Shown piece by piece: positions 6,043 to 46,068 of a stretch of 64,000 nucleotides of DNA (within the stretch, counting starts at the first letter, position 1; the number at the start of each line of letters is the position of its first letter). The DNA lies in NCBI GenBank assembly GCA_039028615.1, contig JBCCHT010000003.1, forward strand, positions 192,001 to 256,000, written 5' to 3'. The notes beneath the pieces are model-generated. The model saw nothing but the letters and a program-made list of their open reading frames with translations. It had not been told where the DNA came from and searched no databases. The DNA is from Myxococcota bacterium (GTDB lineage: Bacteria; Myxococcota_A; Polyangia; Nannocystales; Nannocystaceae). The position numbers and the translations under genes are program-made.

Positions 6043-6052
6043 TCACTAGTTC

Positions 6053-6069: not shown

Positions 6070-6292
6070 CCTGCAATGGCTCGAAATCGACGATTGGAGG
6101 GGGGCGGTCGTTGCGGCGATGGCTACTGTCGTTGCCGATCGCAGGCGGAGGTAGCCAGATCGCGTAGGTGAGTGTGCGGGATGCCACCACCAGCAAGACT
6201 CTCGGTGCAAAGACCGCGAAGCCACGGGACAGGGGTGTCGAATCGGGTACATTCCGCCGGACGTGCTCCTACCTGCTGGTCAACGAAAAACC

Positions 6293-26548: not shown

Positions 26549-26554
26549 GCGCGC

Positions 26555-27823
26555 ATGGGTGGTCTGGCGTCATTGTTGCTATGGGGGGTGCTCGCCCCGG
26601 CCGCGCCCGCGTCCGAGAGCGCGGCTCGGCCTCCTGCGCCCACCGTGCGGCCCGAGCATCGCGAGGAACTCGATGTCCTGCCCGACGATCAGCTCGATGT
26701 CGAGGAAGCCAAGCGCCTGTTCCTGGCGGGTAAACAAGCGGCGGAGCACGGGCGCTGGGACGAGGCCATTCGCTACTTCGCCGAGGCCTACCGCCACTCG
26801 GGCAGCCCCGGGCAGCTGTACTCGATGGGCCGAGGCCATCGCGAGCTGTACTTCAACCAGGGGCGCGACCCGGTGCAGCTGCGGCTGGCGCTGTTGCGTT
26901 TCGAGCAGTACCTCGAGCGCAGCCCCCAGGGGCGCAACCGGGCGAACACCAAGAAGTACATCGAAGAGCTGCGGTCCTACGCCACGGTGCTCGAGGGCTT
27001 CGATCAACCCGAGCTGATCACCCGGCTGATGGTGCACGGGCCCGTCGATGGGGCCACCGTGTCCATCGACGGCGGACCGCCGAGCGCCGCCCCGGTCACC
27101 TTCGATGTGGAGCCCGGCAGTCATCGCGTGCAGATGAGCGCGCCTGGCTATCACGAGGCCGACCGTCGCGTGGAGGTCCCCGAAGGCGCCACTGTGCCGC
27201 TGGAGATCGTGCTCGAGGAGCGCGCGGCCGAGCTGCGCGTCACCGGTCCCGCGGGCGCCGAACTCTACGTCGATGGCCAACGCAACGGGCGCTTGCCGTT
27301 GACCACCCCCGTCGAGCTCGAGGCCGGGCCGCATCAGGTCGCGGTGGCGCAGCGCGGGCATACCCCCTTCGTTCGCGAGATCGAGCTGACCCGGGGGGAG
27401 GCGCGGACTCTCGAGGTCGACCTGCCGATCACCTTCCAGCGCAAGCTGTCGTTCGTGGCCATGGGACTGGGGGCGGGTAGCTCGGTGGCGGCCATCACCC
27501 TCGGTGCCCTCGCCGTGCGCAGCCAGAACCAGGCCCAGCAGATCGAGGACGAGCGGCTGACGGTGGGGGTGAGCGAGGCTCGCTTCGCGCAAGGGCAGGC
27601 GGCATGGCAGCAGCGCGACACTCGGAGGGTCGCCGCGCTCAGCACGGGAGTGGTGGGCGTCGTGCTCATCGGGGCGGGGCTGGTGGCGTATTTCACCGAC
27701 GACCCGCGGCTCGCCGATCGCCTCTATCGCCCCGATCGGGCGCCCAGCCGCGCCAGACCGATCGCCATCGTGCCGGTCGTGGGCGCGGGTCTGGCTGGAA
27801 CCTCCGTGGTCGGACGCTTTTAG
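26555..27823 (+). CDS. TPR + PEGA domain protein
   Basis: Signal peptide, N-terminal TPR, two PEGA-like repeats (GATVSIDG...VEPGSHRV...APGY; GAELYVDG...LEAGPHQV), C-terminal GRF. Confidence 0.85.
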   Translation: MGGLASLLLWGVLAPAAPASESAARPPAPTVRPEHREELDVLPDDQLDVEEAKRLFLAGKQAAEHGRWDEAIRYFAEAYRHSGSPGQLYSMGRGHRELYFNQGRDPVQLRLALLRFEQYLERSPQGRNRANTKKYIEELRSYATVLEGFDQPELITRLMVHGPVDGATVSIDGGPPSAAPVTFDVEPGSHRVQMSAPGYHEADRRVEVPEGATVPLEIVLEERAAELRVTGPAGAELYVDGQRNGRLPLTTPVELEAGPHQVAVAQRGHTPFVREIELTRGEARTLEVDLPITFQRKLSFVAMGLGAGSSVAAITLGALAVRSQNQAQQIEDERLTVGVSEARFAQGQAAWQQRDTRRVAALSTGVVGVVLIGAGLVAYFTDDPRLADRLYRPDRAPSRARPIAIVPVVGAGLAGTSVVGRF

Positions 27824-27844
27824 GGCTACGATTGTGGGGCCGGC

Positions 27845-29119
27845 GTGACGAGCGACGAGCCCGACGATCTCCAGAGCCTCGAGGCCCAGCGTGTCTTCGC
27901 CAGTGTGGCGCGGTCGCTGCTCGGGGAGACCGTCTCGCTGCCCACCATCGGTCGCTTCGAGGTACGAGAGCGCCTGGGCTCGGGGGGCATGGGCGAGGTG
28001 TATGGGGCTTTCGACCCGGAGCACCGCCGAGACGTCGCGCTGAAGTTTCTTCGCAACGACTTGGGGGCGGACTCCGAGGCGGTGACGCGGCTCAAGCGAG
28101 AGGCCCGGGCGCTGGCGCGGCTCGAGCACCCCAACGTCGTGAAGGTCTACGAGGTCGGGGTCAGCGAGGACCGGGTATTCATCGCCATGGAGCGGCTGCG
28201 GGGGCAGACGCTGTCGGCCGAGCTCGAGCGCGACGGAGCCCTCTCCGTGACCCGGGCGTGGTCGGTGCTCTCACAGCTGTGTGCCGCCGTCGGCCGGGCC
28301 CACGCGGAGGGCATCATTCATCGCGATCTCAAGCCGGCCAACATCTTCTCGCACGAGGGGCCGCCCCCGCGCGTCAAGGTGCTCGACTTCGGCATTGCCA
28401 AGGGGGTCGGCAAGGGCACGCTCGAGGCCTCCACCGCGAGCGGCACGGTGATGGGCACGCCATTTTACATGAGCCCGGAACAAGCGCGGGACTCGACCAA
28501 GATCGATCACCGCTGCGACCTGTGGGCGGTGGCGATCATCGCCTACGAGTGCGTGGTGGGGCGGCGGCCCTTCGTGGCGGACAACCTGGCCAAGCTCGCG
28601 GTGGAGCTGTTGACCAAGGACTTGCCCGTGCCCTCCGCGCAGGCCGATGTGCCCCCCGGCTTCGACGCGTGGTTCGCTCGTGCGGCCCATCGGGACCTGG
28701 AGCAGCGCTACGGGTCGGCGGCCGAGCTGGTGCGGGGCCTGGCCGAGGTCTTCGGTCAGTCGCCACCCGCGTGGGCACAGCAAGACGCGCCTCGAAGTCG
28801 GGTGCCATGGATCGCGGGCGTCATCGTGGTGGCGGTCGGCGTCGGGGCGGCATTGTGGCTGGCGGGTGGGAATGAAAGGCAGGCTCCGCGCCCGCCGAAG
28901 GCCCCGTCGCCTGTCGTTTCGCCTCCCGTATCGGCTTCGACGTCGGGCTCGGCGGCAGAGCCCGCCTCGGAGGCCGATACATCGACCCCGTCCGCAGCGT
29001 CGACCACCGCGGCGACCCCCGCCGACTCCACGGGCTCCGACGCACCCCGCCCTCAGCCGCGCCCGCCTCGGCCCACCAAGCCCAAGCCGAAGCCCGACGT
29101 CGACGACCTCGAGTTCTGA
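27845..29119 (+). CDS. Membrane Ser/Thr protein kinase (C-terminus VDDLEF)
   Basis: LGSGGMGEV, VALK, HRDLKPAN, DFG, GTPFYMSPEQ, TM segment, Pro/Ser-rich tail. Confidence 0.92.
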   Translation: MTSDEPDDLQSLEAQRVFASVARSLLGETVSLPTIGRFEVRERLGSGGMGEVYGAFDPEHRRDVALKFLRNDLGADSEAVTRLKREARALARLEHPNVVKVYEVGVSEDRVFIAMERLRGQTLSAELERDGALSVTRAWSVLSQLCAAVGRAHAEGIIHRDLKPANIFSHEGPPPRVKVLDFGIAKGVGKGTLEASTASGTVMGTPFYMSPEQARDSTKIDHRCDLWAVAIIAYECVVGRRPFVADNLAKLAVELLTKDLPVPSAQADVPPGFDAWFARAAHRDLEQRYGSAAELVRGLAEVFGQSPPAWAQQDAPRSRVPWIAGVIVVAVGVGAALWLAGGNERQAPRPPKAPSPVVSPPVSASTSGSAAEPASEADTSTPSAASTTAATPADSTGSDAPRPQPRPPRPTKPKPKPDVDDLEF

Positions 29120-29120
29120 C

Positions 29121-29744
29121 TCAGGAGCTCGAGCCGCCGCCGGCCGCTTCGCGCAGCGACGCCGCCCAGCGCTCGAGGTTGCCCGTGGTCGAGGCCAGCG
29201 GATCGGCGTTGCCCCGCAGCTGCTTCATGCAGGTCCCCAGCGCCTCTTTGGCCCGTCGCAGCCGGCTGCGCACGCCCGGCTCGCCCAGGCCCAGCACCTC
29301 GGCCATCTCCGGCCCGGTCAGGCCTTCCCACAGGTGCAGCTCCAGCGCGATCTGGTAGTCGAGCGGGATGCGACGCAGCGCCTCGAGCAACAGCCGCTGC
29401 TCCACCTTGTCGGCGATGATCGAGCTGGGCGAGGGCGCCAGGTCCATGGCGCTGTGGTCGGTGAAGTCGATGGGGTCGTCCTTGCGGCGGCGACGGCGAA
29501 ACTCGTTGTAGAGCACGTTGCGGGCGGTCCCCAGCAGGAACGCGCGGAAGCTGGCGTCGCGACGAAAGCGAGTGTGGGTCTCGACGCAGGCGAGGAAGGT
29601 CTGCTGTACGAGGTCTTCGGATCCGGTGGTGATCTTGTTGTTGAAGAAACGAAACACCGCACGGAAGTGCCGGCGAAAGAGCTGGCCTCCCGCCTCCCGG
29701 TCTCCGGCTGCCCAGGCATCGAGCAGATCGAAGTCACTCGTCAC
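29121..29744 (-). CDS. ECF RNA polymerase sigma-70 factor
   Basis: DLLDAWAAGDREA, EDLVQQTFL, FRAFLLGTARN, region 4 EGLTGPEMAEVLG...VRSRLRRA; GTG start at 29744. Confidence 0.9.
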   Translation of the reverse strand: MTSDFDLLDAWAAGDREAGGQLFRRHFRAVFRFFNNKITTGSEDLVQQTFLACVETHTRFRRDASFRAFLLGTARNVLYNEFRRRRRKDDPIDFTDHSAMDLAPSPSSIIADKVEQRLLLEALRRIPLDYQIALELHLWEGLTGPEMAEVLGLGEPGVRSRLRRAKEALGTCMKQLRGNADPLASTTGNLERWAASLREAAGGGSSS

Positions 29745-29928: not shown

Positions 29929-31020
29929 ATGGCGACCAGGGGTTTGTGCGGAGTGATGGCGATCGGTTTGGCCTTGGCCTGCGGCGGCGACGAGTCCCGC
30001 CCGGTCGCACCGCCGTGGGGCGGTCTCGATGGCAGCGGCCTCGATGGTGCGGCCGACGACCAAGACGGCGGCAGCGTGGGCGAAGACCCCGCGGGAGGCT
30101 CGGGCACCGCCAGCACGCCCGGCACCGGTCCGGCGGGGTCCTCGGGCACCGCGGCGGACGACGATGGCACGGCGGGCGACGGGGCGGACGACGGCAGCGG
30201 GCCTCCCTCGGGCGACTGCCCTGCGAACTGCTACTGCGAGCCCTTCGACGCCACCGCGGACATCGCCGATCTCGAGGCGTCGTTTGCCAGCGACAATTGG
30301 GCGGAGGTCATGATCGGGGTGCTCGCCCGGCGCTACCCGGCCGGCGCCGACCTGCTGGTGGAGATGCAAGATGACCCCTGGTTCGGCGCGTTCACGGACA
30401 CCAGCAGCTTCACGGGATTGATGGACTCGGTCATGACCGAAGTGCACGAGGGTACCCATGGCTGGGACTACGACCATGCGTTTGGCCAGCCCTACTTCGG
30501 CTACTGGCTGCGCTCGGACCTCATCTTCGAGCCCACCAAGATCGACGGATTTCCCCGCGCCGAGATCGCGCCCATGCTCGTCGACGACTCGACCTCGCTG
30601 TACGCGGGCACCTATCTCACCGGTACTCAGGGCACCTACGGCTTCTATGAGCTGCTCGACGAGATGAACAGCTACATCAACGGCATGGGGGGCATCGCGG
30701 CGGTGGGCGAGCACATCCCGTGGGGCATCAGCGGTCGCGATGGCGCTGTGGCCTTCATGTACTACCTGGAGCTGTATCTGCGACGGGCTCGGACGACATA
30801 CCCCGAGCTTTATGCGCAGATGCAGGCCGAGTCCGAGTACGTGGACCTGATTCGGACGCAGTGGCTGCGCCTTCACTTCTTGCTCGAGCAGGCGGACGGA
30901 CATCCCCACCTGGGCATCCACGACGCCGAGATCCGCGCCCACATGCACGAGCCCAGCAATATGGCGGAGATCGAGATGTTCGTCGGCCAGCCGATCGACG
31001 CCTCGAACTGCCTTCCGTAG
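29929..31020 (+). CDS. Lipoprotein with HExxH zinc-metallopeptidase-like motif
   Basis: Lipobox LALAC; TEVHEGTHG plus downstream LLDEMNSY (possible third Glu ligand). Confidence 0.6.
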   Translation: MATRGLCGVMAIGLALACGGDESRPVAPPWGGLDGSGLDGAADDQDGGSVGEDPAGGSGTASTPGTGPAGSSGTAADDDGTAGDGADDGSGPPSGDCPANCYCEPFDATADIADLEASFASDNWAEVMIGVLARRYPAGADLLVEMQDDPWFGAFTDTSSFTGLMDSVMTEVHEGTHGWDYDHAFGQPYFGYWLRSDLIFEPTKIDGFPRAEIAPMLVDDSTSLYAGTYLTGTQGTYGFYELLDEMNSYINGMGGIAAVGEHIPWGISGRDGAVAFMYYLELYLRRARTTYPELYAQMQAESEYVDLIRTQWLRLHFLLEQADGHPHLGIHDAEIRAHMHEPSNMAEIEMFVGQPIDASNCLP

Positions 31021-31055
31021 CGCTCGGTCGCCCAAAAGTCTGTTAGGGTGGTGGT

Positions 31056-31643
31056 ATGACAGTGCCGCCGTCTGACGACGAGCCCCGCGACGAGGACGGC
31101 ACCTCGGCGTCCGCCGATCCCGATCGCGCCGCGATCTTGGCTCGTCGTCAGCGTTTCATCGCGCTCGCGCTGACCGGCCTGGCCTCCACCGGTTGCGAGA
31201 AGCCGACCAAAAAACCCGGCGGCGAGGTGCACCAAGGCCAGGACGACGCGGGCAAGGCCTGCCTGAAGGTCGCCGCGCCCATTCTGGACGTGGGCACGCC
31301 CCAGCCGTGCCTCGAGGTGGCCGAGCCGCCCGCGCCCGAGCCCGGGGGCGAAGACGATGCCACGCCGCAGCCGTGTCTGATGGTGATCCCCGATCCGCCG
31401 CCCAAGGACGACGGGGGCAACGACGACGACGCCGCACCCCGACCCTGCCTCAACATCGCACCGCCGCCCGATCCAGAGCCCGGCGGTGACGACGATGCCA
31501 CGCCGCGCCCGTGTCTTCGGGTCGCGCAGCCACCCCCCGATCCCAAGCCGCAGCCGTGCCTGCGGGTGGCGCCTCCGCCCGAGCCCGAGCCCGCCCCACC
31601 GCGGCCCTGCTTGAAGATCGCCAAGCCCAGACCCGACAAGTGA
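31056..31643 (+). CDS. Pro/Asp-rich protein with 7 (P-x-P)-C-L-x-[VI] repeats; candidate multi-core modification substrate/lipoprotein
   Basis: ARRQRFIALALTGLASTGC signal/lipobox, then KACLKVA, PQPCLEVA, PQPCLMVI, PRPCLNIA, PRPCLRVA, PQPCLRVA, PRPCLKIA. Confidence 0.75.
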   Translation: MTVPPSDDEPRDEDGTSASADPDRAAILARRQRFIALALTGLASTGCEKPTKKPGGEVHQGQDDAGKACLKVAAPILDVGTPQPCLEVAEPPAPEPGGEDDATPQPCLMVIPDPPPKDDGGNDDDAAPRPCLNIAPPPDPEPGGDDDATPRPCLRVAQPPPDPKPQPCLRVAPPPEPEPAPPRPCLKIAKPRPDK

Positions 31644-32512
31644 TCGCGGCCCCAGCGAGCGACTTTACCGAGCTGGTCCTCCACTGCCTGGCGCACCTCC
31701 GGTCGCCCGGGCCGGAGGACGTCTTCGATGCTGGTTATGTGGAGTGGGTGGGTCACCACGCGCCGACGGCCCACCTCGCGGCATTGGATGTGGGTCTCGG
31801 TCGACTCCAGCGTCATTGGAGCACGGGAAAGGTGCCCGTGGTGGTCCAGGCCTGGCCCGAGCTGTTCCCCACGATTGCGGCCTTTCGCGAGGTCGGGCCA
31901 GGGCCGCTGAAGTCGTTGGCCCCCTCGCAAGTCGCCGGGGCGTCGGTCTTGGGCTGGCTGCAGCGCGCCGACGAGACGATCGTGGAGTCCGTGCACGCGA
32001 CGCTGCTGGAGCTGATGCCCACGTTCGAGGGATGGCATCGGGACGTCGTGCGGCCGCAGCTCTCGGCGGCGATGCAGAGCACGGCGCCGTGGCTCGAGCA
32101 GGCGGTCCAGCTCATGCCTTCGCTCGCGCAGCGAACCATCGAGCAGACCTCGGCCCTCGGTCGGCACGGTCGTGGCCTGCCTTCGCGCATCCTCATCGGG
32201 GCGGCGCTGCCCTTCAACGGCCTCGAGCCCCAGGTGCCCGCGATCTTGGCCCTGCACGAGGAGTCGGTGCACCGCGCGGGCTCGGGCGACTACCACGAGG
32301 TCGAGTGGCGAGCGCTGGTCGGACTGACGCATCGCATGCAGGGCGCCGAGCCGTCGCTGCGGGCGGCGCATGCCCAATGGCTGAGCTCGTTGAACCTCGT
32401 GTCGGTGCTCGACGCCGCCGTGGCCCGGGACGAGCTCGACGCGGCCGGGCGCCAGCAGCTGCTCGCCGAGCCGCTAGCTCGGGCCCAGCGGTTGCTGACC
32501 CTGGGCGGGTGA
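31640..32512 (+). CDS. Hypothetical protein coupled to the repeat protein; HExxxH-like motif
   Basis: GTG start overlaps upstream TGA (GTGA); LALHEESVH...YHEVEW. Confidence 0.55.
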   Translation: MIAAPASDFTELVLHCLAHLRSPGPEDVFDAGYVEWVGHHAPTAHLAALDVGLGRLQRHWSTGKVPVVVQAWPELFPTIAAFREVGPGPLKSLAPSQVAGASVLGWLQRADETIVESVHATLLELMPTFEGWHRDVVRPQLSAAMQSTAPWLEQAVQLMPSLAQRTIEQTSALGRHGRGLPSRILIGAALPFNGLEPQVPAILALHEESVHRAGSGDYHEVEWRALVGLTHRMQGAEPSLRAAHAQWLSSLNLVSVLDAAVARDELDAAGRQQLLAEPLARAQRLLTLGG

Positions 32513-33811
32513 GGGGCGAGTGTCGCGACCGCGTCGACCACGGCGAGGCTCGGGGCCCAGCGTCGGCAGCATGAAGTTGTGCACCGTGGCGGCATCGATG
32601 AGTTCCTGCTTCAACCCGCGCCTCCCCTCGTGCAGCTTGCGTTGACGGAGTCGCTGGGTGATCTGTGTTTCCAAGGCTTCGCGAGGCAGGTCGCCGGCCG
32701 GCCAGCGACCGGTGAGCATGATGATGTGGAAGCCGAACTTGGTCTTCACCGGCTTGGAGACCTGGCCGACCTTCATGGAGAAGGCTTTGTCGGAGAACGA
32801 CTCCACCATGCGGTTGTGGGTGAAGACGCCGATGTCGCCGCCCTTGCGCGCGCTGGGGCCCTCCGAGTGCTCGCGGGCGAGCTCGGCGAAGTCGGCCTTG
32901 GGCTGGATTGCCCGCTTGTAGAGCTTCTGGGCCTTGCGACGCGCCTCCTTGGTCCAGCGGGCGATCTCGGCATCGCTGGGCGGAGGGCCGTTGGTCCCCC
33001 GGCGGCTCTCGGGTCCGATGGGCACGAGGATGTGTGACGCTCGTACTCGAGGCTGGTCCGAGTGCCAGTTGTGTCGGACCCTCTCGTATTCCTCGTCGAT
33101 TTCGGCGTCGGTGACGGTGACGCGGCCCATCTGCTCGAGGAGCGCCACTTCCCGCAGCTCCGCGATGTTGATCGCACGGAGCGACGCTTCGGTTTCCCCG
33201 CGCCGCTCGAGGTGTTTGAGCCAGTCTCGAATGCCGCGCTTTTGCTCTGCCGTGCGTGCCTCGAGAGCGGCCTGGTCGTAGTCGACCCCCGCTTTGGCGA
33301 CGCGTTGGGCCAGGATCTCGTGATAGACGAGCCGCTCGGCGATCGACTTGCGGTAGCGGCGGTCGGCCGACGGTGGAATCGTGCGGCCGCGGTCGGCGTA
33401 CTTCTTGACCTTGAGATCGTAGATGGCCGAAAACTCGGTCATCGGAATCTCGACCGTGTCGACGATGGCCAGCGTCCCCACGGGCATCGGGCCGAGGGGC
33501 GGAGAGGCACGACGGGACGAAGCGCGGGGCAGCTCGGCCGGGGCGGGGCGGGGGTCGAATCGCTCCGGTTCACCGGGCTCGGCAACCGCACCCGGGCTCG
33601 CGGGGGGCTCGGGTGAGGCCGGTGTGGGCTCGGAGTTCGTGACCTCGGGTTCGGGCTCGGGCTCCGCAGTCGCGGGCTCGACCGACGCGGTGGTCTCGGG
33701 CGAGGTGGTCTCCTTCGGCGTGGCGGAGCACGAGATCGTCAGCGACAGCGCGATGATTGCGGGCCCGTGGACGAACGCGAGGCGAGCGGGGAACACAGCC
33801 ATGACGATCAA
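32474..33811 (-). CDS. Parvulin/PpiC-type peptidyl-prolyl cis-trans isomerase (SurA/PrsA-like lipoprotein)
   Basis: RVRASHIL, DFAELAREHSEGPSARKGGDIG, FSMKVGQVSKPVKTKFGFHII; signal ending TISC. Confidence 0.9.
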   Translation of the reverse strand: MIVMAVFPARLAFVHGPAIIALSLTISCSATPKETTSPETTASVEPATAEPEPEPEVTNSEPTPASPEPPASPGAVAEPGEPERFDPRPAPAELPRASSRRASPPLGPMPVGTLAIVDTVEIPMTEFSAIYDLKVKKYADRGRTIPPSADRRYRKSIAERLVYHEILAQRVAKAGVDYDQAALEARTAEQKRGIRDWLKHLERRGETEASLRAINIAELREVALLEQMGRVTVTDAEIDEEYERVRHNWHSDQPRVRASHILVPIGPESRRGTNGPPPSDAEIARWTKEARRKAQKLYKRAIQPKADFAELAREHSEGPSARKGGDIGVFTHNRMVESFSDKAFSMKVGQVSKPVKTKFGFHIIMLTGRWPAGDLPREALETQITQRLRQRKLHEGRRGLKQELIDAATVHNFMLPTLGPEPRRGRRGRDTRPSPAQGQQPLGPS

Positions 33812-33868
33812 TCATCGCCCCTGCCTTCGAATCGAGCAAAGCGGTGATGCGGCCGGAAGGGGTCCCGA

Positions 33869-36100
33869 TCAGTCGAGCACGCGCAGGTGGGTCGCTGGCT
33901 TCGTTGCGGTCGGCGGCGGCTCGACGATGGGCTCGGGCCGGGCGGGTGCCTCGGTGCGGGCCGGCACGTAGCGAACGGCGTGCAGCCAGGTCTGCTCTGG
34001 GCCTTCGGGCGAGAGCACCGTGCGACACATCCGCAGGACGCCCTCGTGGTGAATGGGGGCGACGATGACCGTGCCGGGCTCGAACACCTCCAACCACGCG
34101 GTCGGGAACTGTTCGAGAGCAAAGCCCACCGTGACCTTGCGAAGCCGTCGGGCGCCGGGGGGCCACTGCTCGGGGTCCAGCGCATTGGCGGCCACCGCCT
34201 CGATCCCGCGGGCCTCCATCTCGGGCCGCGTGCGCTCGACGAGCTCGGGGTCGATCTCGATGGAGATGATCGTGCCTTCGTCGCCGACCAGCTCGCGTAG
34301 CAATGCCGCGCCGTAGCCCGTGCCCGAGCCGAGATCGAGCACGCCATCGCCTGGTTGCAGATCGAGCTGGGCATAGGCCAGCGCATAGGCATGCATCGCG
34401 CTGACGGTGGAGGCCCCGGTGTCGTCGAGCCGAATGGCGATGTCGCGGGTGCTGTCGTCGAGTGCCTCGACGGGCACGAATCGCTCCCGCGGCACCTTCA
34501 CGATCGCATCCAAGATCGCGTGGTCGGGGGGAAGCTGGGCGACCTTGGCAATCGCCTTGCGACGGGCCGCGCGTCGACGCTGGGCGACCTCGGCCAATGC
34601 GACGTGCTCCCGCCGTTGTCGCTGAGCGTCGCGCCGCCGACCGAGATAGCCGTGCCACGCGTAGTAGCGCTCGAACGAGTGCATGCGCGACGCGGGCCCC
34701 GAGTACGCGAGCTGGTCTCGAATTGCCCGCATGAAGTAGTCGCGCGCCGAGCCCTGGTAGACGAAGTGGGACTCCATCTCGGCCAAGATCGGCGTGAACA
34801 GCTCGTGCTGAAGCGACTCGCGCTGGGCCCAGGTGAGCTCGGAGCTGGGGTCGACCCACTCGGCGAGGAACTCGGGATCGCCATCGTCCCACCAGTGGGG
34901 GCGATGAAAGCGGGTGCCGTAGCGTTGCTCGTAGGTGGTGCGCTCGGCATCGATGGGCGAGCCGGGGTAGAGCCGGAACGGATCGATCGACAAAAAGCCC
35001 GTGGTGCCCTGCGGCTGCAGGAACAGCTGGCGCAGGTAGTCGGCGCTGCGCCGCATGGAATCCGGGGTCTCGCCCGGGTGTCCGCAGATCACGTTGGCGC
35101 CCCACGGCACCTGATGACCACGCGCCTGCTCGGCGATGTCGAGCATCCGCTCGAGGTAGCTATCGAGGCGTCCCGACTTGCGGATGATCGACAAAAGCCC
35201 CGGGTCGCCGGACTCGAGCCCGAAGCCCAGGCCACAGTTGGCGGCGGAGAACAGCCGCAGGTCCTCGTCTTCGACCAGATCGACCCGGATCAGCAGCCAG
35301 TACTTCTCCACCGGGTAGCCGCGCTGGGCCAGGCCCTCGAGGAACTGCCGACGCCAGCGCTTCTTCATGCCGAACAGCGCGTCGCCGAAGTACAGGGTCC
35401 AGCTGCGCAGGTCGATGAAGCGGTGCAGGCTGTCGATTTCCTCGAGCGCGCGGTCGACCGAGAGGCTGCGCCACGAGACCTCTCGCTTCGCTCGCTCCAT
35501 GCAGAACGCACAGTCGAAGGGGCAGCCGCGCGACAGGTAGACTTGGGCCTGCGAAGCGTAGCTACGGGCCACGTCGCGGTAGCGGGCGAGCAGAGACCAG
35601 TCGGAGGGCGGGAGCTCGTCGAGGTCGTCGATGGCCTCGGGGCCGAGCATGACGCCGCGCAGGGGCTCGCCCCCGGCCACCGACTCCACGATGCGGGCCA
35701 GCGGTTTCTCGCCTTCGCCGACCACCACCACATCGAAGGGCGAGGCCTCGTCGATATAGCCCAGCGGCCGTGCGCTCGGGTGATAGCCCCCGGCCACGAT
35801 GACGGTGTCGGGCCAGCGGGTACGGGCAAGCTGAGCGATGGCCTCGCAGGGGAGGTGGTCGAAGCTCGAGTAGATGCTGATGGCGATGACGTCGTAGCCG
35901 TGACCCTCGTCGCCGTCGATGATGGTGTCGAGCGAGGTCCCCAGGCGCCGCTCCATGGCGAGGTCGCGGATCTCGACCTCCACGTTGCCCTGCGTGCGCA
36001 GGTAGGTGCCCAGCAGCACCAGCTGAGGGACGCCGAAGTTGCCCGCCGCAGCGCCCTCGCTGCCGGGCCACAGCAGCAGCACGCGGACCGGTCGGCTCAT
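33869..36100 (-). CDS. Cobalamin-binding radical SAM protein fused to a C-terminal protein-L-isoaspartate O-methyltransferase (PIMT)-like domain
   Basis: B12-binding N-terminus (VAGGYHPS, DVVVVGEGE), SRGCPFDCAFC, FGLESG, GHPGET; C-terminus VPRERFV...TVSA...VLDLGSGTGYGAALL...SIEID...VRYVP; ATGA-coupled to upstream gene. Confidence 0.88.
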   Translation of the reverse strand: MSRPVRVLLLWPGSEGAAAGNFGVPQLVLLGTYLRTQGNVEVEIRDLAMERRLGTSLDTIIDGDEGHGYDVIAISIYSSFDHLPCEAIAQLARTRWPDTVIVAGGYHPSARPLGYIDEASPFDVVVVGEGEKPLARIVESVAGGEPLRGVMLGPEAIDDLDELPPSDWSLLARYRDVARSYASQAQVYLSRGCPFDCAFCMERAKREVSWRSLSVDRALEEIDSLHRFIDLRSWTLYFGDALFGMKKRWRRQFLEGLAQRGYPVEKYWLLIRVDLVEDEDLRLFSAANCGLGFGLESGDPGLLSIIRKSGRLDSYLERMLDIAEQARGHQVPWGANVICGHPGETPDSMRRSADYLRQLFLQPQGTTGFLSIDPFRLYPGSPIDAERTTYEQRYGTRFHRPHWWDDGDPEFLAEWVDPSSELTWAQRESLQHELFTPILAEMESHFVYQGSARDYFMRAIRDQLAYSGPASRMHSFERYYAWHGYLGRRRDAQRQRREHVALAEVAQRRRAARRKAIAKVAQLPPDHAILDAIVKVPRERFVPVEALDDSTRDIAIRLDDTGASTVSAMHAYALAYAQLDLQPGDGVLDLGSGTGYGAALLRELVGDEGTIISIEIDPELVERTRPEMEARGIEAVAANALDPEQWPPGARRLRKVTVGFALEQFPTAWLEVFEPGTVIVAPIHHEGVLRMCRTVLSPEGPEQTWLHAVRYVPARTEAPARPEPIVEPPPTATKPATHLRVLD

Positions 36101-37173
36101 GTCACCACCGGCAACGACGCCGAGCCGCGCCGGGACTGCCGGAGGCGATCGGCAAAGGCATCGTCGACGTGCTGCGCGACGAAGGGGTCGAGGCCCCGCG
36201 GGTTGCCCAGCACCGAGGCTGCGGCCGCTCCACACCCGCCGAGGCAGTTGCTGCGGTGCGGGCAGGGGGCGCAGAACTCCGGGGTCACGTCGCGGTAGCC
36301 GGTCAGCGCCGGGGCCTCGAGCATCTCGTCGAAGGACTGGGTCCGCACGTCGCCCAGCGACTCGGTGTGCAGCGTGCAGGAGCGCAGCTCCCCGGAGGGC
36401 CCGAGGGCGAGCTCTTGCGCTTCGGTGCCGATGGGGCAGCCGCCGAAGGTGACGTGCGGGTAGTCGGCGTGATCGATGACGCAGGGCGGCACGGGCATGG
36501 TGACCTGCAGGTCGAGCCCGTGCTGCTCACCCCGGGGCTCGGCGTGCTGCAGCGCGGTGATCATGTCGCCCCGCGAGGGCAGCAGGTTCGCCACGTGGGC
36601 GGCGGCGTAGCCTGCGGGAGAAAAGCGCGACAGGGCGATGAGCTGGACGTCGAGTTCGACGAACAGATCGAGGATGTCTCCGACCCGGTCCGCGTTGCGG
36701 CGGGTGACGACGATGCAGCCGGCCACGCGCACGCCGTGACGACGCAGGGCCTTGATGCCTTCGATGGTCTTGTCGAAGTGCTCGCCGCCGACGTGCTCGT
36801 CGTGCATCTGCGCCTCGGCCCCGTTGAGCGTGACCTGGATGCAGCGGATCGGGTACGCGGACAGGCGCTGGGCCAGCGCGTCGTCGACCAGGCCGCCGTT
36901 GGAGATGATCTGCACGTCGACCCCGTGGTCGCGGCACAGGTCGAGCACGTCGAACACATCGTGGCGGGCGAAGGTCTCGCCGCCCGTGAGCGTCACGTGG
37001 TCGAGCTCCAGCTCGGTGAGCGCCCGCGTGACCGCGGCCATGAGGTCTTCGTGGGACAGTGCCCCGATCGAGCGGCCGTTGTCCTCCCGCCAGGCGTTGT
37101 AACAGTAGCTACAGCGCTGATTGCAGTGGCTGGTCAGCTCGATCGCGATCGAGTGGACGGCGCGACGCTTCAC
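36097..37173 (-). CDS. Radical SAM/SPASM domain protein
   Basis: ELTSHCNQRCSYC, TGGE; SPASM GCPIG...GPSGELRSC...CAPCPHRSNCLGGC. Confidence 0.9.
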   Translation of the reverse strand: MKRRAVHSIAIELTSHCNQRCSYCYNAWREDNGRSIGALSHEDLMAAVTRALTELELDHVTLTGGETFARHDVFDVLDLCRDHGVDVQIISNGGLVDDALAQRLSAYPIRCIQVTLNGAEAQMHDEHVGGEHFDKTIEGIKALRRHGVRVAGCIVVTRRNADRVGDILDLFVELDVQLIALSRFSPAGYAAAHVANLLPSRGDMITALQHAEPRGEQHGLDLQVTMPVPPCVIDHADYPHVTFGGCPIGTEAQELALGPSGELRSCTLHTESLGDVRTQSFDEMLEAPALTGYRDVTPEFCAPCPHRSNCLGGCGAAAASVLGNPRGLDPFVAQHVDDAFADRLRQSRRGSASLPVVT

Positions 37174-37201
37174 CGAGCGAGTATATAATACAAAGGCCCC
37201 C
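37174..37201. promoter_or_regulatory. Overlapping divergent -10 elements
   Basis: TATAAT (+, 37184-37189) and TATACT (-, 37185-37180) inside a 28-bp gap. Confidence 0.6.
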
Positions 37202-38557
37202 GTGGACTGGAGCTGCCTCGGACACGCGATGTGGTTGGTCGAAGCGGCCGGCCTGCGATTGCTCTGCGACCCGCTATTGGGCCCTGAGCACCACTGTGGC
37301 GTGTTCGAAACGGTGCCGCGCCGTACGATCGTGGCGGAGCAATTGCGGCCGGATTTCGTCCTGGTCTCGCATCAACACCCGGACCATTTCGACGTCCCCA
37401 GCCTCCATCGCCTCGCGCAGCTCGATCCCGACTCGGTGGTCCTGACGCCCGATTCGCTGGTGGCCTGGGCGGCGCGGACCCTGGGGTTTCGCACCGTGCA
37501 CCAGCTGCCGCCGGCCCAGCGGGTCGAGCTCGACGGGGTCGCCCTGGTCACCACGCCATCGCTCGGGGCCGACGAGTGGGGCGTGCTCGTGGCGGCCGAT
37601 GGCGCGGTGGGGTGGAACCAAGTCGATGCGGTGCTGCGCGACCCGGAGCACGTACGCGAGGTGTTGGCCACGGCCTTGCCCGCGCTCGAGACCCGGCGCG
37701 TGGATCTGGGGATCGTGCGCTGGCAGCCGATGCTGGAGATCGCCGCGGTGCTCGGTCGTCGTACCGGCTTTCCGTACACCACCTATACCGACCTGTTGGC
37801 GCAGGCGGCTGCCCTCGAGGCGGCGGCCATCGTGCCGGGGGCGAACGGGGCCGCCCACGTGGAGGCGTTTCGGTGGATGGACGAGTTCGTCTTTCCCGTG
37901 TCGGAGGCTCGCTTCCTCCGCGACGTGGGCAAAGTGAGCCCGAAGACCAACCCGCTGCCCCTGCACGTGGGTGGTCGCTATCACGTGGAAGCGGGCGCGG
38001 TGACCCTCGATAGGCAGGGCGCGGCTGCGTTGGTGCGGTGCGAGTCGCCGTGGACCGAGCCACGACGCTACCGTCCCTCGTCCATTCCGTCGCTGGTCGA
38101 TCCCAACCCCAACGGGCACGATGAAGCCCAGGCACGCCAGCGCGTGCACGCATGGATTCGGGGTGAGCTCGTCGACGCCTTGGCTCGAGCCTGGCCCAGC
38201 TTTCACGCTACCGCGCCGCTTCGCTTTGCGCTCGAGGTCGTGTTCCCGCGGGCTCATGACGCCTTCACCATCGTGGTGGACGGGCAGGGAGCCCGGGTCG
38301 TCGATGACGTCGACGACGACTGGGACGTGCTCAATGCGGTGGCCGGCTCGTTGCTCTGCGAGGTGATCGAAGGACGTAGACACTGGGGCGATGTCTTGCT
38401 CGCGGGGTGCCTACGGGCGACCACGCGGGCCTACGACGTCGACGAGCGAGGCCTCCGACGCTTGGATGTCGGCGAAATCTTCCTGTACTACGCGCTGCCC
38501 TACCCGGACGCGGTGGAGCGAGCCGTACGCTGGGAAGTGCAGTCCCTCGTCGGCTGA
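37202..38557 (+). CDS. Metallo-beta-lactamase-fold hydrolase
   Basis: LGHA..LV...LLCDP and SHQHPDHFD (HxHxDH); GTG start at 37202. Confidence 0.85.
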   Translation: MDWSCLGHAMWLVEAAGLRLLCDPLLGPEHHCGVFETVPRRTIVAEQLRPDFVLVSHQHPDHFDVPSLHRLAQLDPDSVVLTPDSLVAWAARTLGFRTVHQLPPAQRVELDGVALVTTPSLGADEWGVLVAADGAVGWNQVDAVLRDPEHVREVLATALPALETRRVDLGIVRWQPMLEIAAVLGRRTGFPYTTYTDLLAQAAALEAAAIVPGANGAAHVEAFRWMDEFVFPVSEARFLRDVGKVSPKTNPLPLHVGGRYHVEAGAVTLDRQGAAALVRCESPWTEPRRYRPSSIPSLVDPNPNGHDEAQARQRVHAWIRGELVDALARAWPSFHATAPLRFALEVVFPRAHDAFTIVVDGQGARVVDDVDDDWDVLNAVAGSLLCEVIEGRRHWGDVLLAGCLRATTRAYDVDERGLRRLDVGEIFLYYALPYPDAVERAVRWEVQSLVG

Positions 38558-38565
38558 AGACCGCG

Positions 38566-38601
38566 AAAAAAAAGCAGCCGACACCTGGCGGTGTCGACTG
38601 C
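38566..38601 (-). terminator. Intrinsic terminator
   Basis: Minus-strand 12-bp stem GCAGUCGACACC-GCCA-GGUGUCGGCUGC followed by U8. Confidence 0.8.
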
Positions 38602-39176
38602 TGGGGGGGCAAGGCGAGAACTCATCCCGCCACGATGGCATTGGTTCGGACCCGATCGTCTCGGACTTCGGTCCTCGTCAGGGAGCAAGACGACTCGCGC
38701 TCATGTTCGAGCTCGTGCGAGACCTTCCCCCTCCCCGGACGGGATCAGCCGACTTTCAATCGGTCGTCGGATAGTGACGATGATCGATACAAGCTCGCGA
38801 AGTCCACACAGTTGAGTGGCACGAACTTGTAATGACTATCAATCAATATCCGGACGACGCGGGACTATCGGTCCGCGTTCCGATGATGGCTGCGGTCGCC
38901 CCGCTCTACCATCGTTGATCGGCCGTATCGGCGTGGCCTTTTCGTGCCCTCGGGCAGTTTGCCCAAGCATACGCTCGAGCATTCGACGATTTCCCATGTT
39001 CGACCCCCTCTGCCAGCGACCGATAACTCTCTCCCTTCGTCGCGACCCCCAAGTCCCCCGACTGGGGCCGGACGTCGGTCCCGGCACCGCTCAACTTACA
39101 GCGGTTTCCCCTACCGGGCCATCTCGGAATCTGTGGGGGGATCTATGAAAACACGGTTGTAGCTGCACTCATGTCT

Positions 39177-40532
39177 TCATTCGGGATCAGCCCCGCGATG
39201 TCGACGGAGTTGTTTGGTGATCGACATCGCCATTTCCAGCGCTTGTCGATAGTTGAGTCGAGGGTCGACCTTGCTTCGATAGTCGAGGTGCAACTCTTGT
39301 TCGGTGACCCCGGCTGCGCCACCGATGCACTCCGTAACGTTTTCGCCCGTGAGCTCGAAGTGCACGCCACCGAGTCGTGAACCGAGTTTTGCGTGCACCT
39401 CGAACGCGGCCTGCAACTCTTTGAGGATGCGATCGAAGCGTCGGGTCTTGACCCCCGATGCGGTCGTCTCGGTGTTGCCGTGCATGGGGTCGGCGCACCA
39501 CAAATGCGTGCGACCGGTGGCTCGAACCACCTCGATGAGACGCGGCAATTCGGCCTCGACTCGATCTGCGCCGAGCCGGTGAATCAGCGTCAAACGGCCC
39601 GGTTCATTGTTCGGGTCGAGTCTCTCGAGCAACTGCACGAGCTGCTCGTCGCTCATCGTGGGGCCGACCTTGAGCCCGATGGGGTTACGGATTCCCCGAC
39701 AAAACTCCACGTGCGCGCCATCGGGCTGCGCCGTGCGCATGCCGATCCACGGCATGTGGGTCGACAGATCGTACCAACCGTCGCGGCGCGGAACCTGCCG
39801 GGTCTGCGCCTGCTCGTACTCCAAGCTGAGCGCCTCGTGGCTGGTGTAGATGTTGACGCTCTGGAGCCGCAGGCTCTGCGTGTTGGTCACCGCCTCCATG
39901 AAGCCGATGGAGTCCTTGATGGACTCGGAGATCCGCCGATACTCCTCGTGGTGTTCGTTGCCTTTTGCGAACGAGACGTCCCAGTTTTCTGGATGACGAA
40001 GGTCGGCGAAGCCCCCGTCGGCGAGTGCGCGGACGAAGTTGAGGGTGAGAGCCGCGCGCTCGTAGCCGCGTAGCAGCAGCACGGGGTCCGGCCTTCGGTC
40101 GGACTCGGTGAAGGGCGAGCGGTTGACCAGGTCGCCGCGATACGACGGCAGCACGACGCCGTCGCGCTCCTCGGTGGCGGACGAGCGCGGCTTGGCGTAC
40201 TGCCCCGCGAGTCGACCCACGCGAACCACGGGCCGGCGCGTCGCGTGAACCAAGAGCAGACTCATCTGCAGGAGGATCTTGAAGTTGGTGGCGATGGAGT
40301 TGGAGCCGCAGTCGTCGAACGACTCGGCACAGTCGCCACCTTGCAACAAGAACGCATCACCGCGAGCGGCCGCGGCCAAGCGATCCTTGAGCGCCTCGAC
40401 TTCCCACGACGTCACCAGCGGGGGCAGTCGCGCGATCTGACCTTGAACCTCGGCGAGGACCTCGGGCTCGGGATACGAGACCTGCTGGCTGGCGTCCTTC
40501 GTCTTCCAGGAATTCGGCGTCCAGGGCTGCAT
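39177..40532 (-). CDS. Class II DAHP synthase (3-deoxy-7-phosphoheptulonate synthase)
   Basis: LPPLV, QGGDCAESF, GRLAGQYAKPRS, LPSYRGD, YTSHEAL, WIGMRT, DPMHGNT, GGVHFELTGENVTEC, DPRLN. Confidence 0.95.
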   Translation of the reverse strand: MQPWTPNSWKTKDASQQVSYPEPEVLAEVQGQIARLPPLVTSWEVEALKDRLAAAARGDAFLLQGGDCAESFDDCGSNSIATNFKILLQMSLLLVHATRRPVVRVGRLAGQYAKPRSSATEERDGVVLPSYRGDLVNRSPFTESDRRPDPVLLLRGYERAALTLNFVRALADGGFADLRHPENWDVSFAKGNEHHEEYRRISESIKDSIGFMEAVTNTQSLRLQSVNIYTSHEALSLEYEQAQTRQVPRRDGWYDLSTHMPWIGMRTAQPDGAHVEFCRGIRNPIGLKVGPTMSDEQLVQLLERLDPNNEPGRLTLIHRLGADRVEAELPRLIEVVRATGRTHLWCADPMHGNTETTASGVKTRRFDRILKELQAAFEVHAKLGSRLGGVHFELTGENVTECIGGAAGVTEQELHLDYRSKVDPRLNYRQALEMAMSITKQLRRHRGADPE

Positions 40533-40769
40533 GGCTGCCGGGGACCATAGCAGCCCTGCGCTCGCGCGGGACGGATGATCGAGCTTTCGGGTCGTTGCAT
40601 CGACGTGCATCGCCCTTCACGGAACCGGAGCGGATCGCAGGCTTCCGCGAGGTCCACCCCCGTTAATCGCGAGAATCTCCGGAAATATGCACGGCATGTT
40701 CATACCGACGATTGTCTCGGTGTTCGGGTCTTTATTGCACCGAGCCGGCGTCGGTCCGGCATCGCGGCT

Positions 40770-43157
40770 TCACTCCGCTTCGGCGGCGGGAAGCTGTCGG
40801 GCGAGCAATTCGCGACGTCGTCGCGTCTCGCGGTCGGCGGGGCGCGACAGCAACTCTGGCACCAAGGCGCGCGCGCGGGTCAGCGAGCCTTCGTCGCCCA
40901 GGTCGATCAGCACGCGCAGCAGCTCCTCTTCGATGGCCCCCCGGGCGCGCGTATCGGGCAAGGGGGCGCGCTCCAGCGCGAACTCGAGTGCACGCTGGAT
41001 CTCGGCCAGACGCGGCGGATCGAAGATTCTCAGGGCAGCCACCACCGCGAGATGAGCGGGGGCCTCGTGCGGCACGAGCTCGCGCAGCAGCCGGGCGTGG
41101 TGTAGCGCGAGGGCAGCGCGACCCGAGCCGAGCGCGAGCTGGTGGCGCACGTACAAGGGAGCCGGGTCCTCGGGGTCGAGCTCGTAGCGGACCGAGGCGA
41201 GAGCGTCGGCGTGCGCGGGCGCGACGGACACGAGCGCATCGCTGAGCAGCTTCCACGCCTCGGCGCTCGGGGGGCACAGGGCCGCGAGGTCGTCGGGGTT
41301 GGGGTAGCGCGTCAGCAGATACTGGACGAGGTCTTCGTCGGGAGGATCGTGCAGCAGGGCCAGGCCGCGGGCGTGGTTTTGGTCGGCCACCTCGAGGGGC
41401 TCGCCCCGCTCGGTCTGTGCCGCGCCGAGCACGAACCACGCGTCCACGTTGCCCGGGCGGCGCTCCACCGAGAGGGCGGCCCGAGCTCGGGCGGTGTCCC
41501 AGTCGCGGTCGTTCGCGGCTCGGCGCGCCCACAGCCCGTGGAGGCGGCCGTCGAGGGGGCGCAGGGCGGCCTTGCTCTGCGGGTCGATCTGCCCGGCGAG
41601 CACGGCCGTGTCGACCAGGGGCCGCTGCGAGAACACGTCCCCGCGGTACACGAAGGCCATGGCGAGAGCGCCGACCAGAGCCACGCCGCCCACCCAGCGC
41701 GCGCGCGAGGGAGCCCATCGCCAGCTCGGCTTGGGCGATAGGGCCCCAGCCAGGGCCACGGCGGGGGCGGTGACTCCGAGGAACTCGAAGCCGAAGTCCA
41801 CCAGGTTCTGCAGGCCCACGGCGAGCAGCCCGAGCAGCAGCAGCTGGCGGGCGGCACCGTCTTGGCGCTCGCGATGGGCCACCATCGCATTGAGCCACCA
41901 CGCCATGGCCCCCACGATCAGCGCCCCGCCGAAGACGGGGCCCCACTCGACCAGCGCGGCCATGGGGGCCGACTCGAGGTGGGTGTGCAGGATGTGCGAG
42001 GGCTCGGAGTCGTAGGGCCCGAACACGTCGATGAACGCCCCGCGGCCGATGCCGATCCACGGCGACAGCTGCAGCATGGGCAGCTCGTCGCCGAGGATGC
42101 GGAACTTGCTGTCCTGCGCGACCTCGGGGTCGGCGAGATCGAGCAGGGTGCCCAGCTCCCGCCAGGCCCCGTGCTGGGCGACGAGCAGGAACAACCCCAC
42201 CAGGCCGACGACGACGACGGCGCGGAGCGGGGACATCAGCCGGGAGCGGCGACGCTGGCTCTGTCGTTCGGAGCGCTGGTGCCGAAGCCCCAGCCAAATG
42301 GCGACCGGAGCCAGGAGCAGCAGCACCACGATGGCTCCGCGCGACAGCGACATCACCAGCGCGGGGACCTGCACGGTCAGCGCCGCCATGGCGGCCAAGA
42401 ACCGGTCGCCGTAGCGATCGACCTTGGAGGGATCGCGGGTATTGAGGCCCAGGCGGTGCTGGTCGGCGGCCAAGCTGCCCGCCGCGAAGATGCCCAGCAG
42501 CAGTAACCCCGATTGATGGTTGGGGTTGACGAAGGTCCCCATCATCGAGGGCAGCAGGTGCAGGTCGACGTCGCGGGCGGCGTAGACCCCGTAGATCGCC
42601 TGGAAGCTCATGGCCTCCTGGGCGAAGCCGATGAGCGCCACGGCGGAGCCGGTGGCCGCGGTGGCCGTGGCGGAGGCCCGCCATGACAGCTGGGCGGCGG
42701 CGATGAACAGCAGGGTCAGCCCGGTGAGGCGCGCCACCTCGAACCCGGTGTCGGCGGGCGAGGGGGACAAGCCGGGCCACGCCTGCACGCCCGTGCCCTC
42801 GAGGGCTTGGGTGACCTGGGCGTGCAGCTCGGGCGCGAGCAGGGCCTGGATGCCGGGGATGGGGGCCCACTGCGCGAAGGTCAGCAGGGTCGCGCCCAGC
42901 CCCAGCAGGGCGGCGCGGGGGATGTACAGAGCGGTGCTGGTGCGGGTGCAGATGCGGTGCCACAGCGCGAGCAGCAGCACGAGAAAGGCCAGCATCGCGG
43001 TGGGGGGCACGCCGCCCAGCAGCAGCGCGGGGCTGCCCACGGCCAGGCTCAGCAGGATCCGCGACCACGACCGGCGGTTGCGTTCCTGTCGCCGCCGCGA
43101 GCGTCGAGGAGGCTCGTTGGGCTCGACGTCGAGGTCGTCGTCGAGATCGTCACTCAT
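40770..43157 (-). CDS. O-antigen ligase/Wzy-like membrane protein with helical C-terminal domain
   Basis: GTFVNPNH, SLSRG, PWIGIGRGAF, HTHLES; many TM segments. Confidence 0.75.
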   Translation of the reverse strand: MSDDLDDDLDVEPNEPPRRSRRRQERNRRSWSRILLSLAVGSPALLLGGVPPTAMLAFLVLLLALWHRICTRTSTALYIPRAALLGLGATLLTFAQWAPIPGIQALLAPELHAQVTQALEGTGVQAWPGLSPSPADTGFEVARLTGLTLLFIAAAQLSWRASATATAATGSAVALIGFAQEAMSFQAIYGVYAARDVDLHLLPSMMGTFVNPNHQSGLLLLGIFAAGSLAADQHRLGLNTRDPSKVDRYGDRFLAAMAALTVQVPALVMSLSRGAIVVLLLLAPVAIWLGLRHQRSERQSQRRRSRLMSPLRAVVVVGLVGLFLLVAQHGAWRELGTLLDLADPEVAQDSKFRILGDELPMLQLSPWIGIGRGAFIDVFGPYDSEPSHILHTHLESAPMAALVEWGPVFGGALIVGAMAWWLNAMVAHRERQDGAARQLLLLGLLAVGLQNLVDFGFEFLGVTAPAVALAGALSPKPSWRWAPSRARWVGGVALVGALAMAFVYRGDVFSQRPLVDTAVLAGQIDPQSKAALRPLDGRLHGLWARRAANDRDWDTARARAALSVERRPGNVDAWFVLGAAQTERGEPLEVADQNHARGLALLHDPPDEDLVQYLLTRYPNPDDLAALCPPSAEAWKLLSDALVSVAPAHADALASVRYELDPEDPAPLYVRHQLALGSGRAALALHHARLLRELVPHEAPAHLAVVAALRIFDPPRLAEIQRALEFALERAPLPDTRARGAIEEELLRVLIDLGDEGSLTRARALVPELLSRPADRETRRRRELLARQLPAAEAE

Positions 43158-43178
43158 GGCGATGCCGCCGGCAGGGTA

Positions 43179-45431: not shown

Positions 45432-45546
45432 TCGCGAGGAAGGGAAGCTTAGCAGCGAGGGCCCCGGTCTCCAGGTTTGCGGCGAGTTGCGGGAGGGAGG
45501 CCGGGCCATCGGAGGGAGCGGAGTGAGGCCCCCGCGCGGATCGGCG

Positions 45547-46068
45547 TCAGGGGCGGGGTCGTTCGGGAGGGAGCGCCAGGTCGACGAATGTCCGCAACAA
45601 CGCGTCGCAAGGGCCCGTGGCATGCCTTCGGGCGTACGCACGCAGCCCCTGCCACGCCCGCTCGCGGACGTGTCGGGGGTCCCGCGAGGCGTCGACGGGC
45701 AGCGGTCCCAGGGTTGCTTCGATCCGTGACAGCTCTACACGCTCCGCCGCCAGCTCGGTTGCCTTCAATCCGCGGTACGCCTCCTCCCACGCCGAATCGC
45801 GGTCGCGATCGTGGCCCACGGTGCGGCGCAGACTCCGAACCTCGCGCACCCGGGCCTGGATCGGGGCGATTGCGGCAAGTACGCGCTCGAGGGTGGGCTC
45901 GTCGAGCATGCCGCCGCGGGCGGGGTGCCACACACAGGCGAGGACGACGTCCACATCGAGGTCGTGCTCATCCTGCAGTCGGAGGCAGCAGGCCGCGACG
46001 CCGTCGCGGGCGTAGAGCCGGGTGGCGAAGGCCCACAGCGAGGCGGAGTCGTCGGGTTCGGAATCCAT
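45547..46068 (-). CDS. TIGR02444/DUF2390-like protein
   Basis: LWAFATRLYARDGVAACCLRLQDEHDLDV...KATELAAERVE. Confidence 0.75.
   Translation of the reverse strand: MDSEPDDSASLWAFATRLYARDGVAACCLRLQDEHDLDVDVVLACVWHPARGGMLDEPTLERVLAAIAPIQARVREVRSLRRTVGHDRDRDSAWEEAYRGLKATELAAERVELSRIEATLGPLPVDASRDPRHVRERAWQGLRAYARRHATGPCDALLRTFVDLALPPERPRP

Follow-up and report, generated by a model that had tools for sequence, protein, structure and literature searches.

The 64,000-nucleotide stretch of Nannocystaceae DNA analyzed here (the window; positions 192,001 to 256,000 of contig JBCCHT010000003.1, part of a genome of 12.3 Mb) carries, at 29929..38557, what on sequence grounds is most likely a real, undescribed four-gene protein-modification cassette. 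Its product would be a lipoprotein of the RiPP kind (ribosomally synthesized peptides with post-translational modifications) made by radical S-adenosylmethionine (SAM) enzymes. The four genes encode a Cys-Leu repeat protein (the precursor), a putatively zincin-like protein read from an open reading frame (ORF) that we call ORF X, a radical SAM protein with a SPASM domain (the SPASM enzyme) and a fusion of B12-binding, radical SAM and protein isoaspartyl methyltransferase (PIMT)-like domains (the B12 enzyme). They form one conserved cassette: their genes are found in the same genomes and in common operons, the start and stop codons of neighbors overlap, and some proteins are fusions. This cassette is smaller than the seven-gene system of the original prediction, which had been made from the sequence alone. 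A literature search found no description of it, most subscription journals lying outside the scope of that search.

All seven ORFs of the original prediction were found where it had placed them, and its domain assignments were borne out (Radical_SAM and SPASM; B12-binding, Radical_SAM and PCMT; Rotamase and SurA_N; Lactamase_B). None of the NCBIfam models reached its cut-off for any of the seven proteins, and the repeat protein, ORF X and an upstream HExxH lipoprotein had no Pfam or NCBIfam match. The precursor starts with a conserved twin-arginine (RR) leader, DPDRAAILARRQRFIALAL, followed by a hydrophobic stretch, a lipobox-like Cys47 that closes this signal-peptide-like N terminus, and a disordered chain rich in Pro, Asp and Glu that holds the repeats; its Atlas model has a predicted TM-score of 0.14. 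The seven Cys-centred repeats described earlier are present as seven Cys-Leu repeats (six PxPCL and one KACL), but that count had left out an eighth cysteine, Cys47.

Among 75 precursors of the window type, leucine directly follows 322 of the 323 cysteines outside the lipobox, against a leucine background of 1.7%. Proline occupies position -3 in 97% of these repeats, and position -1 is proline, alanine or valine, while spacers and repeat numbers vary freely. The RR pair is present in 74 of the 75, with the cysteine 15 to 32 residues further on, and in all 75 that cysteine follows a hydrophobic stretch. The genome encodes both Lgt (5 matches) and TatC (1 match). The precursor is thus predicted to be exported by the twin-arginine (Tat) or the general secretory (Sec) route and to be lipidated at Cys47, in agreement with the earlier suggestion of a modified surface lipoprotein, and its RR signal peptide and lipobox-like cysteine would make a dedicated exporter unnecessary. 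The idea that Asp runs serve the PIMT-like domain did not hold: aspartate is unpositioned, no D or N lies within 6 residues in 176 of 322 repeats, and the Asp content of precursors falls to 0%.

A six-frame motif scan of the 12.3-Mb genome returned four segments, of which this one alone is a real ORF, so that no paralog of the precursor was found there. Across genomes, one to four repeat genes lie in or beside the operon, with leader or follower segments specific to the subtype. Orphan precursors were also seen far from the enzymes (L185:5809-6219, L187:5132-5485, L188:2928-3311, L189:5691-6098, L190:64-474 and 6043-6489, and L193:4706-5020). Genome G026 has as many as 5 copies and G066 as many as 12 profile matches, and in some of these precursors the spacers are of Thr/Ser/Gly and not Pro-rich.

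Among 61 genomes of relatives, the B12 enzyme was matched in 17, namely, 11 with the window type (63 to 77% identity in relatives) and 6 with only a 36 to 41% type. The precursor was matched in 12, which are the 11 genomes with the window-type B12 enzyme plus G007, where the match contains three stops and was discounted. In a profile test on 161 genomes sampled from the class, the RR precursor was found in 10 and the B12 enzyme in 13, that is, in the same 10 plus G019, G041 and G051, while the remaining 148 had neither. The three additional genomes carry a second subtype, with GPCL precursors of its own. Presence is patchy inside genera (4/5 and 1/4), and the cassette genes are therefore lost together.

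The SPASM enzyme was found at 209 GTDB loci, of which 80 were taken for neighborhood counts, many of the precursor-negative ones being short contigs. The B12 enzyme was encoded at 73 of these 80 window-type loci, and the precursor was detected by its motif at 47, compared with 3 false matches in 12.3 Mb. For the 18 longer loci among the 33 precursor-negative ones, a precursor-profile match was found in 18/18 genomes, 16 of them at E<=1e-10. In 3 of 7 negatives that were read again, mini-precursors of 62 to 87 amino acids with one or two repeats lie directly upstream of the SPASM gene. At many loci outside Nannocystaceae the precursor gene sits between the two enzyme genes or just before them, on the same strand. 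The convergent layout in the window, raised earlier as a caveat, is therefore no objection. The repeat protein and both radical SAM enzymes occur together across genomes, so that the lack of co-occurrence that would have refuted the original prediction was not seen, and we hold it very likely that the precursor is the substrate of the cassette enzymes. One window-type locus (L098) belongs to a metagenome-assembled genome labeled Planctomycetota.

Metagenome loci of the second subtype numbered 35, of which 31 were counted and four (L225 to L228, with weak or short matches) were left out. Precursors were present at 25 of the 31, the B12 enzyme at 24 and ORF X at 16, and all seven second-subtype loci examined carry CL-repeat precursors on the enzyme strand. 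Their repeat motif is [V/T/I]-G-P-C-L (165 repeats), so that the unit common to both subtypes is (P/A)-C-L. The precursors of this subtype have other signal peptides and, in 37 of 41, a conserved C-terminal follower; beyond the motif, precursors of the two subtypes did not align. Both subtypes are present in Paraliomyxa miuraensis SMH-27-4, a host available in culture.

The enzymes of the two subtypes decay reciprocally. Window-type B12 enzymes keep the SAM motif of the PIMT-like part (159/167, with RExF in 148 and TxSAMH in 151, in a set that holds duplicates), and their ORF X has HExxV. In the second subtype the SAM motif is lost (0/22, not counting L146, whose SPASM enzyme is of the window type), the PIMT part being decayed or absent, and ORF X keeps HExxH in 113 of 116 homologs and the full HExxH..H..E in 108. 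What is conserved in ORF X is not the HExxxH noticed earlier but HExxV..E, present in 40 of 40 window-type homologs, none of which has HExxH. The invariant residues are R178, H206, E207 and E222, and with the second histidine missing, the idea of peptidases for core release is not supported for the window subtype. We infer that a live peptidase is required where there is a follower, whereas in the form with a leader ORF X is retained for binding and an extra methylation is used.

ORF X proteins of the two subtypes are homologous (98.3% probability over 218 columns), and through this homology a zincin-like fold of the window protein is supported indirectly. The second-subtype model (predicted local distance difference test [pLDDT] 97) resembles YbeY (Z 9.8, root mean square deviation 3.0, 120 aligned), PepN (Z 8.8) and Wss1 (Z 8.4), and for the window model (pLDDT 96) the best Z was 5.2. 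Searches with ORF X returned nothing at E<=0.001 (Foldseek against the PDB) and nothing significant (profile search against PDB sequences and Pfam). Atlas searches gave only unnamed clusters. When ORF X was modeled as a complex with residues 22 to 91 of the precursor, the score was 0.02, and the model was not used as evidence.

The SPASM enzyme (PF04055 and PF13186) has its radical SAM domain from residue 11 on, and no PqqD-type match, and thus no RiPP recognition element (RRE), was detected in any of the seven proteins. A Cx2Cx5Cx3C motif is present in 76 of 78 homologs, none of the 76 having a further cysteine within the next 40 residues. Seven auxiliary-cluster cysteines are kept and the terminal one is never present (0/76), D/E-P standing in its place. 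By analogy, this suggests that a cluster site is open or held by a carboxylate and would be suited to thiol binding. In the B12 enzyme, which matched 801 clusters at E<=1e-60, the B12-binding domain and the CxxxCxxC core are intact. In several proteins ORF X is fused to it (B12-PIMT-X, or B12-X as at L146), two of them without the PIMT domain.

Three further genes had been proposed as members. The metallo-beta-lactamase-fold (MBL) protein is linked to the system, being present in 14 of 17 system-bearing relatives and in none of 44 lacking it, but among 28 more distant genomes with the system it was found in only 15. Its gene occurs at 24/80 window-type and 4/31 second-subtype loci, lies next to the cassette in either subtype, and in three genomes sits elsewhere, unlinked, a distribution by which it is an optional accessory. 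A search of PDB sequences with the MBL protein gave 0 matches. A 34% MBL paralog lies at L184:7836-15220 (G005:C155), beside genes that resemble a YcaO/TfuA thioamide cluster. The other two genes are passengers; they encode a peptidyl-prolyl isomerase (PPIase) and the HExxH lipoprotein. The PPIase was absent from all 80 window-type and all 31 second-subtype loci, is present in 23 of 24 genomes of the family, 13 of them without the system, and has a 61% paralog elsewhere in this genome (C22). The HExxH lipoprotein occurred at 1/80 and 0/31 loci, and in 8 of the 17 genomes that bear the system and 5 of the 44 that lack it.

The reading that we favor, and consider probable, is that every (P/A)-Cys-Leu unit is modified by the two radical SAM enzymes while still in the cytoplasm, after which the chain would be exported and lipid anchored at Cys47. 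In place of an RRE, the cassette would recognize the over-conserved RR leader, probably through ORF X, the catalytically degenerate zincin, or else through a surface of one of its enzymes. The SPASM enzyme would bind the cysteine thiol at its open auxiliary-cluster site and join sulfur to carbon inside the unit (a C-S bond). For the product, our first guess would be a short thioether ring and our second a thiooxazole-type oxidation. The B12 enzyme may then methylate an unactivated carbon of the unit, and in the window subtype the intact PIMT-like domain may add a polar O- or S-methyl step. Tat or Sec export, lipidation by Lgt and signal cleavage would yield a chain with multiple modifications that is tethered to the membrane, in other words, a DAG-RiPP made by radical SAM chemistry. 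That the cysteine sulfur takes part in the modification seems reasonably likely, and a thioether specifically is a tentative proposal. As to function, a metal-binding or envelope role would be a guess by analogy.

Several points weigh against this reading. The precursors were chosen by their CL motif, which makes the motif census partly circular. One precursor profile (A8) was built partly from genomes subsequently scored positive, 28 candidates per genome were scored in one class profile test and 6 in the other, and related genomes are not independent. A TatFind-like pattern fits 31 of the 75 precursors and not the leader of the window's own, and many lipoboxes are non-canonical. ORF X was found at 40 of the 80 window-type loci (32 of the 51 long ones), and G064 gave no credible precursor, only a profile match. 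The enzymes are distant from every characterized one: the best PDB match of the SPASM enzyme is PqqE, a C-C crosslinker (E 1.6e-34), and that of the B12 region is a radical SAM enzyme of the apramycin pathway, a non-methylase that ranks ahead of the methylase TokK, so that methylation is not assured. A general ring between P(-3) and the cysteine (P-x-x-C), considered by analogy with NxxC, was demoted, the second subtype having V, T or I at -3.

Among the alternatives, it is unlikely that the enzymes act on the leucine or proline carbons of the precursor, by cyclopropane formation, epimerization or iterative C-methylation of leucine, leaving the cysteine free for metals or disulfides or as a recognition handle. 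The leucine is as invariant as the cysteine, and radical SAM cyclopropanes on peptides have a precedent in TvgB, as outlined in PMC11002830. The PDB relatives of the SPASM enzyme include YydG, which epimerizes peptides, but the two resemble each other only weakly and only in the core (E 1.7e-7), and an invariant cysteine together with an incomplete SPASM cysteine set fits thiol binding. Very unlikely is a role of the repeat lipoprotein as a carrier, a donor of sulfur or metal, or a scaffold, with enzymes that act on a small molecule or membrane lipid and the MBL protein as a hydrolase. The proximity of the SPASM enzyme to the cofactor enzymes PqqE, AhbD and NirJ, matches of the B12 enzyme to lipid and hopanoid enzymes (below cut-offs), the tracking of the system by MBL in Nannocystaceae and the scattering of some precursors away from the enzymes would all suit such a role. 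However, RiPP precursors are usually built in this way, with repeat genes within or next to the operon, spacers and repeat numbers that vary, and a leader or follower; conservation of pathway genes near the loci was not seen, and MBL was not found in 13 of the 28 more distant system-bearing genomes.

The full original prediction, with the seven genes working as one system and with proteolytic release of multi-core peptides that carry thioethers, C-methyls and aspartimide or isoaspartate, now deserves hardly any credence. The contiguity of the genes in this genome, the intact zincin of the second subtype and the intact PIMT-like motifs of the window type are in line with it, but two of the seven genes fail to co-occur with the system, the window-type ORF X lacks HExxH, aspartate has no fixed position, and no conserved cleavage site or transporter was seen across loci and precursors. 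Returning to modification of the (P/A)-Cys-Leu unit followed by anchoring, a bolder form of it, which we regard as doubtful, would be a new class of membrane-anchored RiPP. This class would have an unprecedented Pro-Cys-Leu cross-link or heterocycle (e.g., a ring from the Cys sulfur to a Leu carbon, then methylated) and a zincin fold for substrate recognition, and would have divided into two forms, one guided by a leader, in which the methyltransferase is live and the peptidase dead, and one guided by a follower, in which the reverse holds.

Within the window, two coupled gene pairs converge, with a GTGA overlap between the precursor and ORF X (whose GTG start at 31640 overlaps the precursor stop) and an ATGA overlap between the SPASM and B12 genes; the PPIase gene lies between them (Table 1). 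The insert at this place differs by genome, measuring 3 kb in G004 (L053:10593-13893) and about 20 kb in G002 (G002:C2). Judged from the start of a homolog, MBL likely begins at GTG 37202 and not at 37121, and the N terminus of the PPIase reads as lipoprotein-type. Close homologs of the window proteins are labeled Nannocystaceae or Myxococcota.

Table 1. Genes of the cassette region, with their position in the window, proposed status and supporting evidence
Feature	Status	Position	Strand	Evidence or remark
Precursor, 195 aa, RR leader, Cys47 and seven Cys-Leu repeats	core	31056..31643	+	co-occurs with B12 enzyme
ORF X, 290 aa, putatively zincin-like, degenerate HExxV..E	core	31640..32512	+	homology to HExxH subtype; B12-X fusions
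B12-binding/radical SAM/PIMT-like methyltransferase fusion, 743 aa	core	33869..36100	-	domain matches, motifs
Radical SAM/SPASM enzyme, 358 aa, no RRE	core	36097..37173	-	domain matches, Cys motifs
MBL-fold protein, HxHxDH invariant	optional accessory by distribution	37202..38557	+	divergent from SPASM gene
SurA/PrsA-like parvulin PPIase lipoprotein	passenger	32474..33811	-	extra copy of family-wide gene, between convergent units
HExxH lipoprotein, unnamed, upstream of precursor	passenger	29929..31020	+	next to it in just 2 relatives of the same genus

Between the divergent starts of SPASM and MBL lie only 28 bp (37174-37201), which contain the AT-rich TATATAAT in GC-rich DNA. This is possibly a shared -10 element, which went unscored in a promoter scan that found no sigma-70-like promoter. 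A terminator-like 13-bp hairpin with a T-tail lies on the minus strand at 38573-38602, between MBL and a class II 3-deoxy-D-arabino-heptulosonate 7-phosphate (DAHP) synthase gene (39177-40610) whose synteny with the cassette is confined to the 5 relatives of the same genus. Further on, the genes at 40770-45641 presumably encode a membrane protein of the O-antigen-ligase type and a polysaccharide chain-length kinase of the Wzc type. Upstream (25061-29740) are two Ser/Thr kinases, a gene between them that we take to be TPR/PEGA-like, and an extracytoplasmic function (ECF) sigma factor, a common myxobacterial signaling block that is not conserved beside the cassette at other loci.

Compared with known systems, the cassette shares a SPASM enzyme beside a Cys-repeat substrate, and incomplete Cys ligation of the auxiliary clusters, with the ranthipeptide, sactipeptide and protein-thioether systems (NxxcB, QmpB, CteB, QhpD and CrpC/CrpA). 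As outlined in PMC9389541, thiol activation at the auxiliary cluster has been proposed for NxxcB, and CrpC/CrpA is presented in PMC13692751 as a case of SPASM thioethers on a whole protein. The cassette differs from these systems by the missing RRE, by having no conserved acceptor residue shared across subtypes, by its B12 enzyme partner and by a predicted lipoprotein substrate, and all named maturase models listed scored far below cut-off (StsB, 99 of 625 bits). SbtM, a radical SAM-SPASM enzyme that, according to the portions consulted of PMC11002830 and PMC12538549, turns cysteine into thiooxazole (-4 H), has a different motif, and its model scored 55 of 350 bits. In domain content and motifs the B12 enzyme is like the class B methylases TokK, ApyD and MgmA and the PIMT homologs of RiPPs (FxLD and graspetide methyltransferases), but these models too were far below cut-offs (ApyD, 77 of 750 bits; FxLD, 112 of 320 bits) and the fusion is unnamed. 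The motifs of aspartimide-forming PIMTs are intact here, yet a conserved core Asp is absent. Zincin metallopeptidases resemble the second-subtype ORF X model, while the window ORF X lacks the second histidine. Weak matches of ORF X reach the alpha-ketoglutarate-HExxH oxygenases (ChlB-H; Z 4.7 and 5.5). Bufferins and oxazolins, described in PMC11626156 as exported Cys-modified peptides that bind copper, differ in their motif and in using MNIO enzymes.

The closest parallel is with the DAG-RiPPs (DybA/DybH and NedA/NedBC), whose precursors carry lipoprotein signals, are modified in the cytoplasm and then enter the host lipoprotein pathway, as set out in PMC13056109. Shared with them are a precursor with a lipoprotein signal, a lipobox Cys and Cys motifs (repeated in NedA); linked modifying enzymes predicted to be cytoplasmic, a signal with lipobox-like cysteine and the host Lgt and TatC are all present here. 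The DAG-RiPPs described in the portions consulted there are made by enzymes of the MNIO/DUF692 family, and the term "radical sam" is absent from the main text of that paper. Conversely, MNIO/DUF692 proteins are absent among those of the cassette region, and no unidentified enzyme cluster is conserved across loci. The cassette has instead two radical SAM enzymes, a PIMT-like domain, a zincin-like protein, the motif (P/A)CL and an RR leader. If the proposed reading is correct, it would extend RiPP-lipoprotein hybrids from MNIO to radical SAM chemistry. Two uncharacterized enzyme families thereby gain a concrete candidate substrate and a three-residue target that is directly testable, and enzymes acting on a short motif inside variable disordered spacers would serve site-specific protein tagging.

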